From the NCBI GenBank assembly GCA_039794045.1, contig JBAMLY010000008.1, positions 1 through 34,489 of the forward strand: DNA of 34,489 nt. The letters are read 5' to 3'. Made by a program: the position numbers and the translations under genes. Positions 6,659 through 22,936 of the stretch are shown here, in pieces. The DNA comes from Candidatus Micrarchaeia archaeon. Lineage in GTDB: Archaea; Micrarchaeota; Micrarchaeia; Norongarragalinales; UBA8480. Position 1 is the first letter of the stretch, and each line of letters starts with the position of its first letter. Under the pieces are notes generated by a model, which did no database searches, was not told the origin of the DNA, and saw only the letters and a program-made list of their open reading frames with translations.

Positions 6659-7450
6659 CCTATTTTGAGATAAGTTGTGTTACACGCGACTGACTTCTCT
6701 TTGTGACGTCGCGTCGTTCTTGCCGCAACGCGTTTTACAGTCGTTTAGGGCATTCCAGCCTTTACAGTGCGCGCGCTTTGAGAAGCCTTTGCGGGTTTCT
6801 TGCAGTGCGCGGGCGTTGACGGCGTCGTGATAATCCGAGGAGACTTCAACAGGCGCTTTTGCGTCGATGACGTTCGTTTCGGGTTTGATGCAGAAGACCT
6901 TGGGAGCAAAAAAGCTGAGAGTTAGTTCTTGCGGCCCTCTACGGCCACGCGCTATCGCGCGTGAGCCTCACACCAGTCGATCCTGCTGGAGGGCACTGCT
7001 ATCGGATTGCGACTAAGACATGCAAGTTTTAAGACCGGGCTTCCGGTCTTGGCGTACGGCTGAGTAACACGTAGTCAACATACCCTAGAGATTCGAATAA
7101 CTTCGAGAAATTGAAGCGAATTCGTTATAGGCAAGGATTTCTGGAAGGAAGCCTTGCTGAAAAGGAGCCTGAATTGCAGGGAGTTCCGCTCTAGGATTGG
7201 ACTGCGTCTGATTAGGCTGTTGGCGGGGTAACGGCCCACCAAACCAATAATCAGTAGGGGCTATGGGAGTAGTAGCCTCCAGAAGGGCACTGAGACAAGG
7301 GCCCTAGCCCTATGGGGTGCAGCAGTTACGAAACTTCCGCAATGCGCGAAAGCGTGACGGGGGTAGTCCGAGTGGCATTCGAAAGAATGCCTTTTGGCCA
7401 GTCCGAATAACTGGCAGAATAAGTGGTGGGTAAAGCCTGTGCCAGCCGCC

Positions 7451-7482
7451 AGCGGCAACAACTCACGAGTTGTCGCCGGTAA
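7451..7482 (+). other. 32-nt BHB intron in 16S 530 loop (about E. coli 526/527)
   Basis: Splits GTGCCAGCCGCC|GCGGTAATAC; helix GCCG/CGGT, bulges CC|A and AA|G, hairpin GCGGCAAC...GTTGTCGC. Confidence 0.9.
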
Positions 7483-7653
7483 GCGGTAATACAGGTAGCA
7501 CGAGTGGTGTCCGCGAATATTGAGCCTAAAGCGCCCGTAGCCGGTTCGGCAAATTTCCTGTGAAATCTTCCAGCTTAACTGGGAGGCTTGCAGGAAACAC
7601 TACCGGGCTTGGGAGTGGGGGAGGTCAGGGGTACGTCAGGGGGAGCGGTTAAA

Positions 7654-7692
7654 TCACGCGCGTAGCGCGACTTGTTGCGCGCGTTGTAACAA
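7654..7692 (+). other. 39-nt BHB intron in 16S 690 loop (about 696/697)
   Basis: Splits GCGGTTAAA|TGCTTTAATCC; helix GTTA/TAAC, bulges AA|T and AA|T. Confidence 0.88.
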
Positions 7693-7774
7693 TGCTTTAA
7701 TCCTTGACGGACCACCAGTGGCGAAGGCGCCTGACCAAAACACGTCCGACGGTGAGGGACGAAGGCCAGGGGAG

Positions 7775-7806
<32 letters not shown>

Positions 7807-7888
7807 AGTAAATGATGCAGACTAGACGTTGCACTTGCTTCGAGCAAGTGCAGTGCCGTAGCGAAGGCGATTAGTCTGCCGCTTGGGG

Positions 7889-7931
<43 letters not shown>

Positions 7932-8073
7932 TACCACAAGCCGTGGATGCTGCGGTTCAATTGGATTCAACGCCGGGAAACTCACCAGGAAAGACGGCAG
8001 GATGAAGCTCAGGCTGAAGACCTTAGCCAACAAGCCGAGAAGTGTTGCATGGCCAGCGTCAGCTCGTGCCGTG

Positions 8074-8172
8074 AAAGAGCAGCTTCCTCGAATGAAGGAA
8101 AGCTTTCCAACCGCGTTAAACGCGCGGGCGTTGCTTTCAGACGAGAGTTGAATGGGAGCTGTTTTTCGGTAC
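8074..8172 (+). other. 99-nt BHB intron in 16S (about 1079/1080)
   Basis: Splits CAGCTCGTGCCGTG|AGGTGTCAGGTTAAGTCC; helix GCCG/CGGT, bulges TG|A and AC|A, long stem AAGAGCAGCTTCC/GGGAGCTGTTTTT. Confidence 0.9.
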
Positions 8173-8820
8173 AGGTGTCAGGTTAAGTCCTGCAACGAGC
8201 GAGATCCCCGTTCACAGTTGCCATCTTTGAAGTGATTCAAAGAGCACTCTGTGAAGACTGCTTGCGTTAAGCTAGAGGAAGGAGGGGGCGACGCTAGGTC
8301 AGTATGGCCCGAATTTCCTGGGCCACACGTGGCATACAATGGCGGAGACAATGGGTTCCGACGCCGAAAGGCGAAGGCAATCTCAGAAACTCCGCCTCAG
8401 TTCGGATTGGGCGCTGAAACTCGTGCCCATGAAGCTGGAATGGCTAGTAATCGCGTGTCATCATCGCGCGGTGAATATGTCCATGCTCCTTGCACACACC
8501 GCCCGTCAAGCCATCCAAGCGAGGCTTTAATGAGGCTCGGACTTAGGTTCGAGTCGAGCTAAAGCTTTGTGAGGAGGGTTAAGTCGTAACAAGGTAACCG
8601 TAGGGGAACCTGCGGTTAGATCACCTCCAATTGGTCGAAAGCGCGAACGCAGAAGTTCTGTTCTCGCGCGAAACTAGAACTAATTCGGAGAATTCCAGGA
8701 ATCAATTCCGCCTGGAAGCGCTAAAGCATCGAGCTTGCCTCGATGATTTGCAATTTCCTTGGTCTTCTGCAAAAAAACTTTTGTGGGCTCGTGGCGCAGT
8801 GGTAGCGCGCCTGCTTTGCA

Positions 8821-8903
8821 AGCAACCCTTTTCTTCGTCGCTTCGCCTTCGGGGTTCAGTTCCTCGAAAAGCGTTGACGGAAAAAGAGAATGGTTGCCGG
8901 GAA
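8821..8903 (+). other. 83-nt canonical intron of tRNA-Ala; intron family B
   Basis: BHB with helix TTTG/CGGG and closing stem GCAACC/GGTTGC; near-identical to the tRNA-Glu intron. Confidence 0.9.
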
Positions 8904-8925
8904 AGCAGGAGGTCGCGGGTTCAAA

Positions 8926-9004
8926 AGCCATGCCTCTTTTCTTTTCGTAGGAGAAAAGACGCTGGGCGTGGCGCAGAGAAAACGCCGCGCCTGACAGCGG
9001 AGTA
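8926..9004 (+). other. 79-nt T-loop intron (59/60) of tRNA-Ala
   Basis: Removal restores TTCAAAT; contains hairpin GCCATGCC...GGGCGTGGC; boundary +/-1 nt. Confidence 0.8.
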
Positions 9005-9326
9005 TCCCGTCGAGTCCATTTTTTCGTGCAGGGCAACGCATTCGATTGCGTGTCTTGCTAACGCAACCGTTTCTTTGGTTGCGCCGCTCGCGAGTAAGTC
9101 CCCTTGATTGAGAGGGGCTTTGTAGAGCGCAGTGCGGAACGACTGCCTCGGGCTTTCAAGCCAGGAGGCTTTGCTTGAAGTGAAGCGCGACAGTGTTTGC
9201 GTTGGAGCGTGGAACGACAAGCAAAAAAGTCGGGTATGAAGCTTTTACAGGAAAGGAGTCTAACGGAAGATCACGTGCATGGAAGCCGCGAAAGCGGTTG
9301 CCGTGTAATGGTCTTTTGGGAAAAAA

Positions 9327-12277
9327 GTGCTACTAGTTAGTGCCGTACAGTGGATGGTTGGGCTCGGAAAACGATGAAAGGCGTGGCAAGCTGCGAAAAG
9401 CCAAGGGTAGGAGCAGGCGTCCTTTGATCCTTGGATTCCTGAATTGCTCGGAGACGAGTGAAGACCGGCGGAATTGAAATATCTTAGTACGCCGAGGAAG
9501 AGAAACCAACCGGGATTCCGTGAGTAAGGCGACTGAAAGCGGAGTAGAGCAAACCGAATGCCTCTGCGCAAGCAGGGGACGAATGTGGTGTTTGGACCTC
9601 CTTTTAGCACCGGAAATGCATTGTCTGAAGTGAGCTGGAATGCTCCGTCTTAGAAAGTGAAAGCCTTGTAGGACTAGCGTTTTCGGGCGTGGAGAGTTCC
9701 AGAGTAAGGCAGCCTTGCATGGCTGCAAGAACGTGGGAGGATTAACTTCCAACTCTAAACATATTTCGAGACCGATAGCGTAAATGAGTACCGTGAGGGA
9801 AAACTGAAAAGCACCCCGACAGGGGAGTTAAAAGTGCCTGAAACTGTGCGGCTACAGTGAGACGTGGCGTGAAAGGAATGTAGCGCGCGAAAGCGCGCCA
9901 AACAGCGTTGCGTCGTACTTCTTGAAGCAAGGGCCAGGGAGTTCAAGGGAGTGGCGAGCATTAAGCAAAGCGAAAGCGATTCCGCGCAACCGCGCAAGCG
10001 GCGAGGCGGGGCGTCTTAACGGGCGCCGAGTCACTGTCTTGAGACCCGAAGCCGAAGCGATCTATGCGTGAGCAGGATGAAGCCGCTCTTCCGAGTGGTG
10101 GAGGTCCGCAACCGATTCTGGTCTAACCGACCGGGTGACTCACGTATAGGGATGAAAGTTCATTCGAGCTCGGCATTAGCGGGTTCCCTCCGAAGTGTCT
10201 CCCAGGACAGCCTCGCTGGAGGCAGACTCTAGGTAGAGCCACCGATTAGGGGGCATGGGGAGTAAAATCCTCACCTTCTCGTCGAACTCCGAAGCTAGAG
10301 TCGCCGTAGAAGGCGGGAGTTGGGATGTACGAGGTAAGCGCGTACTCCGTGAGGGGAAAGACCCCTACTGCGGTTAAGGCCCCAAAGAAGTGGCTAAGTG
10401 GAAAGTCAAGACGTCTTGGTTCTCAGACAGCTGGGAGGTAGGCTTAGAAGCAGCCATCCTTTAAACAACGCGTAACAGCGGACCAGTCAAGTTCTGGGGC
10501 GTCGCAAACTATCGGGCCTAAGCCACTCGCCGATACCGTGGAACTGCAGTTGAACTGCAGATTTGGTAGGAGGGTGTACTGACTGAGTGGAAGGAGGTTC
10601 GCGAGAACCTCTGGATCGGTTAGTAACAAATATCCTGGTGCTAGTAGCATCTATTCCAGGCGAGAATCCTGGACGCCGGAAGGGCAAGGGTTTCTTGGCA
10701 ACGCTAGAAACCAACTTTTCTTTTGAGAAAAGAAGAAAGAGAGAAGAGGGTTGGCGAGTCGGCCAAGAGTAAGTCGGTCCTAAGGCTAAACGTAACCGTG
10801 ATGCCGAAAGGGAAACACGTTAACAATCGTGTACCTCGTTGGGGCGCGCGGCAACGCAAGTTCAAGTCAGACGCCTGTGGATAAGCCGAGCGGCTGCGAA
10901 GCCGTTCAACAAAGATAGCGCGAGGAAGTCTCGTTGTGAGGAGCACTCGCACAAATTTGGAGTAGCCCGCAAGGGTTCGGCTGATTCCGTGGGCCCGTGA
11001 AAATGGCTTGGAAAGCTTTCAACGAGTCCGTACCAAGAACCAGTACAGGTGCCCCTAGCAGAGAAAGCTAAGGCGTGGCAGGAAAACCGAAGCAAGGGAA
11101 CTCGGCAAGTTAGTCCCGTAAGTTAGCAAGAAGGGATGCCTACACTTCTTCCAAGATTACATCAAGGAGGACTTGTAGGTCTCAGTAACAAGGGGACGTC
11201 GACTGTTTACCAAAAACACAGGTTTCAGCAAGGTGGAAACGCTGAGTACTGAAGCCGACGCCTGCTCACCAGCAGTATCTGAAGCTGGGGTTCAACTCAG
11301 TCAAGGACTGCTAAGGAGCGGGAGTAACTCTGACTCTCTTAAGGTAGCGTAGTACCTCGCCGCTTAATTGGCGGCTTGCATGAATGGCGTAACGAGCGTC
11401 CCACTGTCCCTGCTTTGGACCTGGCGAACCTACTACACGGTGAACATGCCGTGGACTCCGAGTGGGAAACGAAGACCCCATAGACCTTAACAACAGTCTG
11501 TAGTTGCGTCGCGGTTGGTGATGCAAAGCGTAAGCAGGAGCCGTTAAGTCCGCTCTTTCGGGGGCGGGATAGGCGAAAGTGTGACACTGCTCTTCTTCGA
11601 CTACGTCGCTTACCCTAAAGGGACAGCTGCAGATGGGTTGTTCGACTGGGGCGGTACGCCTTCGATAACGAAACAAAGGCGCCCAAAGCTCAACTCAAGA
11701 GCGTCAGAAACGCTTTGTAGAGGGTTAAACACAAATGTTGGGCTGACTGTGTCCTTAACAAAATGGGATGCAGACGCGAAAGCGGGGGTTAACGAACAAT
11801 AGTGTGCCTCTTGATGGGGCCCTATTCTGACAGACAAGGTACCTTGGGGGTAACAGGCTCGTCGCGTGCGAGAGTTCATATCGACCACGCGGTTTGGTAC
11901 ATCGCTATCGGCTCGGGACATCCTGGTGGTGCAGGAGCCACCAAGGGTTGGGTTGTTCATCCATTAAAGTCCCACGTTAGTTGGGTTCAAAACGTCGCGA
12001 GACAGTTTGGTGGCATCTACTCGGAGTGTTTGGCTGGCTGAGGGTAAGGTTTCCTAAGTACGAGAGGAACGGGAAATCGGCGCCTCTAGTTAAGCTGTTG
12101 TGTCAACGCAGGCAGCATAGCCACGCGCCAAGGGATAAGTCCTGAAAGCATCTCAAGGACGAAGCCCCTCCTAAAACGAGCCAGCTTAGGACGCCCGTAG
12201 CAGACGGGTTTGATAGGGCAGGAGTGTAAACCAAGAGCGCAAGCGATTGGCGAGCTAACTGCTACTAAAGTCCGCAC
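9327..12277 (+). rRNA. rrl: 23S rRNA (archaeal) with one intron
   Basis: GTGGATGG..GGCTCGG 5' region, AGTACCGTGAGGGAAA, GTPase centre GGCTTAGAAGCAGCCA, TAAGGTAGCG, PTC loop, sarcin-ricin loop AGTACGAGAGGAAC; ends approximate. Confidence 0.96.
10708..10758 (+). other. 51-nt BHB intron in 23S (about E. coli 1328/1329); resembles family A
   Basis: Splits GGCAACGCTAG|TCGGCCAAGAG; helix CGCT/GGCG, bulges AG|A and AG|T, closing stem AACC/GGTT. Confidence 0.85.
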
Positions 12278-12523
12278 CCAAAAAACACTGCCATCGCTCC
12301 CCAGAGCGCGCGAGCGCGTTGAAGGGAAGAGAACTGAAAATAGTGTTTTTTTGGGGTAACACTTTTTCACCCAAAAAGCAACACCATTTAGCACGTCAAG
12401 AAATGACTCCGTTCCTTTCCAGTAAAAGCGTGCAAACGCGCGCTGCGCTCGCAGTTTCTTCAATGCCGAGCGGCAAGCATATTTTAAAAACGAAGCGCCC
12501 AAAAATTATTTGGGTGGCGCTCA

Positions 12524-14551: not shown

Positions 14552-14879
14552 TGGGGGCGGTGGGTGGATTGCTGTCGGTGGCATTTGCGTGCAAGCGCGT
14601 GCCGCTGAGGAACTTCCGCTTACCCTGGCGTTTCGCCAGCAATAGGCGCGAGAGCGCCCCGTTTAAGGCGGGAGCCAAGAGCAGAAACGACATCCGTCCT
14701 GCAGAGCAATGAAGAAAACGAGCTGGGAAGCAGGAGAAGAGCGAGCCAAGTGAAGCTAAAGCCGAACGAGGCGAGCCCTTTCGTGGAGTGAAACGTGCTT
14801 GGCTTGGTACAAGGCCGTAACGGCCGCTTAGTCCAATGCAATCAAAAAACAGAAAGCGGGGTACGGCCCGCCGCCCCCA
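14552..14879 (+). ncRNA. rnpB: RNase P RNA (archaeal)
   Basis: P1 TGGGGGCGGTGGG/CCCGCCGCCCCCA; CR-I GAGGAACTTCCGC; CR-II GCAGAAAC; CR-III TGAAAC; GCTTAGTCCAATG; CR-V AAACAGAAAGCGGGGTAC; TATA-like TTTTATAT at about 14524. Confidence 0.9.
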
Positions 14880-21529: not shown

Positions 21530-22074
21530 AGGAAGCTCGGCGGCAGGCAGTGCACGTGTTGGCTGGCTTGCTTGTAGTCGCCTCGGTTTTCGTGGCGGGT
21601 TTCCAGCTTACTTTGTTGTTCTTGTTGGCAGTGTTGTGCGCTGGCTTTGCTTTGTCGACAGTTAAAGCGTTAGGTGGCTCGATAGGAGTTTTCGACGAGG
21701 CTTTAAAGCAATTAGAGCGAGGTGGCGTCATGCCTTTTCATGGCGCGCTCGCTTTCGTTGCCGGCGCTCTTTTTGCTCTCACGTTTTCTCCAGACCGCGC
21801 TTTTGGTTTGGGGGTGGTAATGATTCTCGCTTTCGGGGACGGTTTTTCTACTCTCGTGGGCTTGACTGGCCGTACGCGTCTTCCCTGGAACAAGAAAAAA
21901 ACTTGGCGGGGGTTGCTTGCCTTTACTTTGGCGGGAGGAATTGCCTCGCTTGCTTTCATGAGCGTGGCGGGACTTGGTTACGCTTTAATTTGTGGTTTAG
22001 TGGAAAGCGTTGACGCGGGCTTGGACGACAACATTCTAGTGCCAGTCGCCGCAGTAGCACTTAAAATGGTTTGA
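21511..22074 (+). CDS. Dolichol/phytol kinase-like (CTP-dependent) membrane protein
   Basis: RQAVH, LAFGDGFSTLVG, KKTWRG and DDNILVP motifs. Confidence 0.82.
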   Translation: MAEVNLKEARRQAVHVLAGLLVVASVFVAGFQLTLLFLLAVLCAGFALSTVKALGGSIGVFDEALKQLERGGVMPFHGALAFVAGALFALTFSPDRAFGLGVVMILAFGDGFSTLVGLTGRTRLPWNKKKTWRGLLAFTLAGGIASLAFMSVAGLGYALICGLVESVDAGLDDNILVPVAAVALKMV

Positions 22075-22778: not shown

Positions 22779-22936
22779 GCTCCAGTCGTCTAGCTCGGTC
22801 AAGGATACCGGCCTTTCAAGCAACCCTTTTCTTCGTCGCTCCGCCTTCGGGGCTCCGTTCCTCGAAAAGCGTTGACGGAAAGGAAAAGGCGCTGCGCAGA
22901 AAGCCGGCGACCCGGGTTCAAATCCCGGTTGGAGCA
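22779..22936 (+). tRNA. tRNA-Glu(TTC) with canonical intron
   Basis: GCTCCAG/TTGGAGC acceptor; CCGGC-CTTTCA|A-GCCGG; CCGGG-TTCAAAT-CCCGG. Confidence 0.93.
22819..22901 (+). other. 83-nt canonical intron of tRNA-Glu; intron family B
   Basis: 60 of the first 63 nt identical to the tRNA-Ala intron (manual alignment). Confidence 0.9.

Follow-up and report, generated by a model that had tools for sequence, protein, structure and literature searches.

Short hairpin introns of the bulge-helix-bulge (BHB) type (<50 nt) have been described in the 16S rRNA genes of Thermoproteales, Desulfurococcales and Aigarchaeota, and the accessible text of that study places them at 13 loci, namely 374, 548, 722, 781, 803, 901, 908, 919, 978, 1093, 1205, 1213 and 1391 (Jay & Inskeep 2015, PMC4496867). 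ARMAN-2 and ARM-1 are reported, in the part of the source drawn on here, to have 522 bp insertions in the 16S rRNA gene at E. coli position 1093, which encode a hypothetical protein and the splicing of which was called 'uncertain' by the authors (Sakai et al. 2022, PMC8784108). According to the sections available to us, the non-canonical tRNA introns of ARMAN-2 are cleaved by its epsilon2 EndA (PMC5829648, PMC3488258), enzymes of the epsilon2 type cleave relaxed BHB motifs (PMC5829648), and PDB entry 4FZ2 is the apo form of the ARMAN-2 epsilon2 enzyme (PMC12397907; PMC3488258). BHB introns have also been found together with group I introns in the rRNA genes of Micrarchaeota, and the archaeal group I sites given in the consulted text are LSU 1923, 1931, 2500 and 2593 and SSU 1498 (Nawrocki et al. 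2018, PMC6125680).

Here, the window (the whole stretch of DNA that was analysed, 34,489 nucleotides) was contig C8 of a 655 kb genome (G000) that comprises 16 contigs and is 92% complete. The window contains an rRNA operon in the order 16S-ITS-23S, with a tRNA legible in the ITS, and its 16S rRNA gene (Table 1) was the sole 16S match across the whole genome. This gene is 1660 nt long compared to the 1478 positions of the archaeal SSU model, and is longer than the model because it contains three inserts. The first of these, designated intron 1, lies between GTGCCAGCCGCC and GCGGTAA at 7439-7489, and reading the sequence confirmed both the coordinates and the letters of the 32-nt insert that had been proposed from the DNA alone. 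Our reading, which we hold with high confidence on sequence grounds, is that this insert is an archaeal BHB mini-intron in the 16S gene, with splicing by EndA and RtcB proposed. The original prediction that the 515F/Arch519 primer site is interrupted by a BHB intron was strongly supported by the exact boundaries of the insert, its recurrence, the constancy of the central helix and bulges, covariation of the inner helix, and the presence of EndA and RtcB.

Table 1. Coordinates of the 16S rRNA introns, their structural elements, primer sites and rRNA genes in the window. The arrow marks the predicted cut within a bulge.
Feature	Position	Strand	Details
16S rRNA gene	6970-8629	+	Rfam RF01959 (archaeal SSU model), 1366.8 bits
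LSU (23S)	9332-12287		Rfam match
Arch21F site	6971-6990	+	5 mismatches
340F site	7308-7325	+	perfect match
5' exon flank of intron 1	7439-7450		GTGCCAGCCGCC (sequence read)
Outer helix h, 5' strand UGCC	7440-7443	+	pairs with GGUA 7485-7488, 4 bp
Central helix H, exon strand GCCG	7445-7448	+	pairs with CGGU 7477-7480
Bulge 1, CC↓A	7449-7451	+	predicted 5' cut after C7450
Intron 1	7451-7482	+	32 nt, E. coli 526/527, helix 18 / 530 loop
Inner helix h'	7452-7459 / 7469-7476	+	8 bp, one G.U
Apical loop of intron 1	7460-7468	+	9 nt, UCACG within
Central helix H, intron strand CGGU	7477-7480	+	base-by-base check
Bulge 2, AA↓G	7481-7483	+	predicted 3' cut after A7482
3' exon flank of intron 1	7483-7489		GCGGTAA (sequence read)
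Intron 2	7654-7692	+	39 nt, in the helix 23 690 loop, after E. coli ~694-696
806R site	7783-7802	-	perfect match
Intron 3	8074-8172	+	99 nt, after E. coli ~1079

When MAFFT was used to align the gene with those of three relatives and with rrsH of E. coli, intron 1 fell after E. coli position 526, and the Rfam archaeal SSU model left 33 bases unaligned at this point, where the model has 1. A base-by-base check of the proposed fold showed that all four pairs of the central helix H were formed, one of them as G.U, and that this 4-bp helix separated two 3-nt bulges on opposite strands, which is the arrangement of a BHB. In BHB motifs, each bulge is cut between its second and third bases; G7483 of bulge 2 corresponds to E. 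coli G527. In silico excision at 7450/7482 restored the sequence found at the loci of 25 uninterrupted relatives as well as E. coli positions 515-533. The outer helix opened with an A7444.C7484 mismatch beside the bulge, the next 4 bp being those of helix 18, and because of this mismatch the BHB is near-canonical or relaxed and not quite textbook. Thus, the GCCG/CGGT helix and the CC↓A and AA↓G bulges of the original prediction stood, while its description of the motif as textbook was a little too generous, given the A7444.C7484 mismatch and an MFE fold other than the BHB. Intron 1 was without an ORF and had no paralogue in the genome, and a blastn-short search of the whole genome with the three introns returned only self-matches and chance matches of 11-16 nt, which gave no sign of a dispersed mobile family or of a paralogue for any of the three.

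The insert had at first been taken as a single oddity; instead, it marks a lineage-wide recurrent site, interrupted also in 27 genomes besides G000 and in 80 metagenome contigs, and the same gene holds two further BHB introns. In a set of related genomes (31 loci out of 41 genomes, with 2 of the loci being G000 itself), 25 of the 26 relatives' 16S loci that matched the site pattern were without an insert at 526/527 and read GTGCCAGCCGC-C-GCGGTAA, and 3 of the 31 loci fell outside the pattern. In G018, which belongs to another family of the same order, exactly this point is occupied by an insert of 30 nt that begins and ends like intron 1 and has a compensated stem. When only the exon flanks were fixed, a same-site insert was detected in 2 of 68 genomes of the order. 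Across the phylum sample, with the exon flanks fixed and the interior left free, inserts of 26-43 nt were detected in 28 of 401 genomes, a findable site (interrupted or intact) in 260, and the intact GTGC form of the site in 59, these denominators including the unpublished genomes G241 and G094, neither of which has the intron and on which nothing else here depends. Family f12 carried the insert in 22 of 30 genomes, and the site was findable in 22 of 30 and intact in 0 of 30; every findable f12 site (22/22) was therefore interrupted. No insert was detected in the 101 genomes of family f13, and the site was intact in 5 of the 7 other genomes of G000's own family. The 80 metagenome contigs contributed 46 distinct introns of 21-46 nt, found with a stricter pattern that preset the first base of the intron and its last six, such that those invariants hold there by construction. 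Two of the metagenome introns resembled the G000/G018 subtype (UCACG loop), and no apical sequence was conserved across the same-site subfamilies, which together ranged from 21 to 46 nt in length. Overall, the 526/527 intron recurs within the phylum: it is fixed in one family, and other families have it only sporadically.

Several further matches were considered in these searches and set aside. The introns of G068 (f12) and G214 (f23) were identical; lateral transfer between them was rejected, as their rRNA loci (L163 and L178) were 99.4% identical over 2775 bp and one organism's rRNA contig in two bins is the likelier explanation. Since this contig was probably binned twice, f23 was not counted as an independent family. 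The end of L163 also displayed exact repeats of 30-32 nt, spaced ~65-70 nt apart, with a CRISPR-like look. Surplus matches of the 13-mer GTGCCAGCCGCCH, which occurred in 62 of 401 genomes, were rejected as longer introns and attributed to chance, given that 10 of 10 surplus loci inspected were not rRNA; no longer intron at 526/527 was present among these 10 of the 38 surplus rows. A looser pattern, CAGCMGCN{15,45}GCGGTAAYAC, was non-specific and also matched bacterial records, presumably by chance, since a pattern this short was estimated to give thousands of such matches.

Comparison of the same-site introns revealed which parts of the motif are constant and which vary. All 28 genome introns began with A and ended in CGG[U/C]A[A/C], even though their interior had been left free in the search. 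Helix H formed all four pairs in 28 of 28, with an intron strand of CGGT in 27 and CGGC in 1; bulge 1 was CCA in every case, and bulge 2 was AAG in 7 and ACG in 21. No covariation signal comes from the outer helix or from the exon bases of helix H, all of which are invariant exon sequence, and helix H showed a single one-sided change, G.U to G-C, in 1 of 26 distinct rows. In the inner helix, by comparison, all 5 counted pairs had changed on both sides among the 26 distinct sequences, and sliding the partner by 1-3 columns left at most 51% of cells paired. In the alignment of the 26 distinct introns (A1), 96.4% of cells were paired compared to 86.8% in shuffles (0 of 500 reached the observed value), and when metagenome contigs were included (61 distinct introns), the inner helix had 267 of its 305 cells paired (87.5%) compared to a mean of 179.5 cells (58.8%) after the arms were re-dealt among the 61 introns (0 of 1000 reached the observed value), although such statistics overstate both significance and independence, since same-site sequences are kin. 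The inner helix of intron 1 is thus supported because its arms covary across the same-site introns.

The genome encodes candidate proteins for both steps of splicing. A single EndA gene was found on contig C11 (domains PF01974 and PF02778), the product of which matched PDB 4FZ2 with E = 1.4e-126 over 374 aa, and an RtcB ligase was detected with 579 bits. The broad specificity of epsilon2 EndA accords with the imperfect outer helices of the 16S introns of G000. All five genomes tested, of which four carry the intron and one lacks it, had a full-length EndA homologue, and EndA, being lineage-wide, therefore does not by itself account for which genomes have the intron. Judged from gene content and motif, intron 1 would very probably be spliced by epsilon2 EndA together with RtcB. 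In the proposed pathway, exon GCCG (E. coli 521-524) would pair in the pre-rRNA with the 3'-terminal CGGU of the intron, which would give a 4-bp helix bounded by two 3-nt bulges, together with a hairpin inside the intron and the lower portion of helix 18, a fold that the sequence allows and that covariation supports. Epsilon2 EndA would then cut after C7450 and after A7482, and RtcB would ligate the exons to give ...GCCGCC↓GCGGUAA... (arrow, ligated junction), the 32-nt intron probably being circularised. Helix 18 and its pseudoknot could form from that point on.

Both DNA and RNA data sets were searched for the insert or its spliced product. The original prediction had named source reads that lack the insert as a point against it; Logan contigs of the probable source run carried intron 1 with 0 differences at a depth of ~33, and these contigs come from a different assembler but probably from the same source sample, such that they are not independent of the assembly. 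In three RNA runs (X2-X4) from other habitats, groundwater or wetland, which contain the rRNA of other organisms and about a quarter of the sampled words, the joint 7450/7483 was absent from the 15 of 42 joints listed. One X4 contig, 94% alike, ceased to fit at 7450. Gaps at introns 2 and 3 in these runs were rejected as evidence of splicing: one X2 contig skipped 7652-7690 and several contigs had 6-8 other letters in place of 8075-8180, and these are most simply relatives without introns 2 and 3.

These observations also bear on whether the exons are re-joined at all. If EndA cut the BHB and the exons were left apart, the mature small-subunit rRNA would be fragmented at 526/527, an outcome that we consider improbable. 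The evidence for BHB recognition fits this outcome equally, and the RNA runs X2-X4 yielded no ligated junction; against it, RtcB is present in the genome, and, judging from ribosome structures, a break beside G530 and the pseudoknot strand at 524-526 would leave only tertiary contacts to hold the decoding centre together. Removal of bacterial intervening sequences by RNase III leaves the rRNA fragmented, and the exons of archaeal 16S BHB introns are generally re-joined after cutting. Also at odds with fragmentation, the consulted text of PMC4496867 describes archaeal 16S introns as BHB introns that are processed by the tRNA-splicing endonuclease.

It is very unlikely, in our assessment, that the 32 nt instead persist in mature 16S rRNA, where they would form a small hairpin that expands helix 18. 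Retention would agree with the RNA runs X2-X4, in which no splicing was seen, and with the fold of the isolated RNA, the MFE structure of which is not the BHB but a simple hairpin with closing pairs between the exons. The unconstrained MFE of 7434-7497 was -31.7 kcal/mol with exon-exon GCCGC/GCGGU pairing, compared to -22.3 kcal/mol for the hand-drawn BHB fold and -24.9 kcal/mol when helix H and the bulges were enforced; the BHB fold of intron 1 was thus not recovered by thermodynamic folding alone. The 57-nt stretch at intron 1 was more stable than all 200 shuffles (z = -2.77), which, like the exact boundaries and the 25 uninterrupted loci, argues against chance. However, retention offers no reason for the constant first A, the CGG[U/C]A[A/C] end and the 3-nt bulges in 28 of 28 introns, nor does it sit well with lengths of 21-46 nt and the lack of an apical sequence conserved across subfamilies, and a retained insert would break universally conserved bases of the 530 loop. 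The 530 loop acts in decoding. Finally, it is scarcely credible that the insert reflects an error of assembly or binning, or that this copy of the rRNA gene is dead: the genome is a 16-contig metagenome-type assembly and its best DNA match is probably its own source sample, hence a dependent check, but the Logan contigs carry the insert with 0 differences, same-site introns occur in the 27 other genomes and 80 metagenome contigs, and the genome has no 16S gene other than the interrupted one, which scores 1366.8 bits and lies in a normal 16S-tRNA-23S operon.

Returning to a spliced BHB mini-intron, a doubtful but conceivable view is that intron 1 is more than a tolerated parasite and that selection keeps it to gate the maturation of the decoding centre or, in a milder form, that sporadic copies have spread laterally. 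As a gate, the 3' end of the intron would sequester 16S positions 521-524 and block the 530-loop pseudoknot, such that small subunits would become translation-competent only once EndA and RtcB had acted; this would explain the interruption of 22 of 22 findable sites in f12 despite the lack of a homing endonuclease and of paralogues. In the milder form, lateral spread might proceed by reverse splicing or gene conversion. The UCACG-loop subfamily is common to G000 and G018, which belong to different families, and closer relatives of G000 are without the intron.

The two other introns of the same gene had related anatomies. Intron 2 formed all four pairs of its central helix (GUUA/UAAC) and had two AA↓U bulges with an offset or weak outer helix, its boundary sliding by up to 2 nt inside a run of A; it was absent from G001, G018 and G006 in the MAFFT alignment. 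Intron 3 likewise formed four of four central pairs, GCCG/CGGU, the same letters as in intron 1, with UG↓A and AC↓A bulges, an inner helix of at least 8 bp and a weak outer helix. Shorter versions were present at the intron 3 site in G001 and G018, and none in G006. Introns at 526, ~694 and ~1079 would together represent natural rRNA substrates for a broad-specificity epsilon2 endonuclease.

Other RNA genes of the window were also longer than expected. A tRNA-Ala(UGC) with a G3:U70 pair was legible by eye in the 16S-23S spacer (8785-9018), apparently interrupted by a long insert that follows the anticodon loop and by a second long insert in the T-loop; it was detected neither by ARAGORN, which found no tRNA in the whole window, nor by Rfam at E ≤ 1 in the ITS. 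A tRNA match at 22779-22936 (Rfam, 41.9 bits) spans 158 nt compared to the 71 positions of the model, and this gene carries a long intron or introns. The match to archaeal RNase P RNA at 14556-14875 scored 89.1 bits, barely over the threshold of 84 bits, and covers 320 nt compared to 288 model positions; there may be an insert there as well.

The position of intron 1 has direct consequences for primer-based surveys. In silico, 515F had no site with ≤ 3 mismatches in the 16S gene, and its best ungapped placement had 5 mismatches, every one of them among the seven bases at the 3' end; with the insert in the middle of the site, 515F, Arch519 and related primers therefore lose their binding site in DNA. 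The expected failure in V4 surveys was thus supported in silico, visibility from cDNA would follow if the intron is spliced as predicted, and the approximately five mismatches to 21F and the matching 340F and 806R sites were found as predicted (Table 1). The in silico 340F-806R product measured 495 bp compared to 424 bp, longer because introns 1 and 2 lie within the amplicon. By eye, two of the five differences from Arch21F compensate each other within helix 1 (CCGG/CCGG to CCAG/CUGG), and because of this the divergent 5' end of the 16S gene reads as a functional variant and not as decay. The sole 515F-like site in the window (≤ 3 mismatches) was GTGCCAGTCGCCGCAGTAG at 22039-22057, outside the rRNA operon; 4 of 100 shuffles gave such a site, and it is probably due to chance.

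Intact sites elsewhere in the phylum were also examined. Most other families of the phylum read GTGGCAGCCGCC, with G for C/T at E. coli 518 (GTGG vs GTGY), and the large families f14, f19 and f21 had the intact GTGG variant among the matches listed. Family f14 additionally has A for G at 527, GCCACGGTAA, a point mismatch to 515F that arises without an intron. The 515F/806R primers are a standard pair in microbial surveys and the one of the Earth Microbiome Project. On this in silico basis, standard DNA surveys probably miss G000 and the carriers of same-site introns, and no degree of primer degeneracy would let DNA amplicon surveys detect a lineage with an intron within the 515F/Arch519 site. 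Amplicon data on the abundance and distribution of this DPANN phylum are likely biased low, because of introns (28 of 260 findable sites) and of point changes in most other families.

Compared to the described systems, intron 1 combines a known intron type with a different position. Group I introns occur at SSU position 516 of eukaryotic nuclear rDNA, and group I introns and intron 1 alike sit in highly conserved rRNA segments and use the 530-loop region as an insertion site. Group I introns are self-splicing ribozymes of hundreds of nucleotides, in contrast to the 32 nt of intron 1, and a group I reading of intron 1 was rejected, as the SSU rRNA model alone matched the 16S span at the Rfam gathering score; nor would a ribozyme core fit into 32 nt. 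The tRNA introns of ARMAN-2, as described in the sections drawn on, resemble intron 1 in the type of EndA, in being small hairpins at unusual positions and in their relaxed outer helices, and they differ in the substrate, which is tRNA in ARMAN-2 and is predicted to be 16S rRNA here. The ARMAN-2 and ARM-1 16S insertions likewise occupy conserved 16S positions, probably in the same phylum as judged by EndA similarity; on the available description, they are long and coding and lie at 1093, whereas intron 1 is 32 nt, non-coding and at 526/527 with an explicit BHB.

The closest resemblance is to the short introns of PMC4496867, with which, according to its accessible text, intron 1 shares the lack of an ORF, a length of <50 nt and a hairpin that keeps the BHB, as well as a location in a highly conserved 16S site where 'universal' primers are interrupted. 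The host of intron 1 is no crenarchaeon; its genome, 0.66 Mb in size and of the DPANN type, encodes an epsilon2 EndA, and unlike those systems, intron 1 has no homing-endonuclease intron nearby for co-conversion. Neither 526 nor 694 nor 1079 is among the 13 loci listed, which sets intron 1 apart by locus, and the terms '526' and '530' are absent from the text of PMC4496867 that was available. No prior description of a BHB intron at 526/527 or in the 515F site was found in the literature searched, which included few subscription journals. Overall, the BHB mini-intron is a known type, and the 526/527 locus is absent from the 13 published loci; intron 1 thus points to a BHB insertion locus that is new and lies at the decoding centre, among bases next to the helix 18 pseudoknot.
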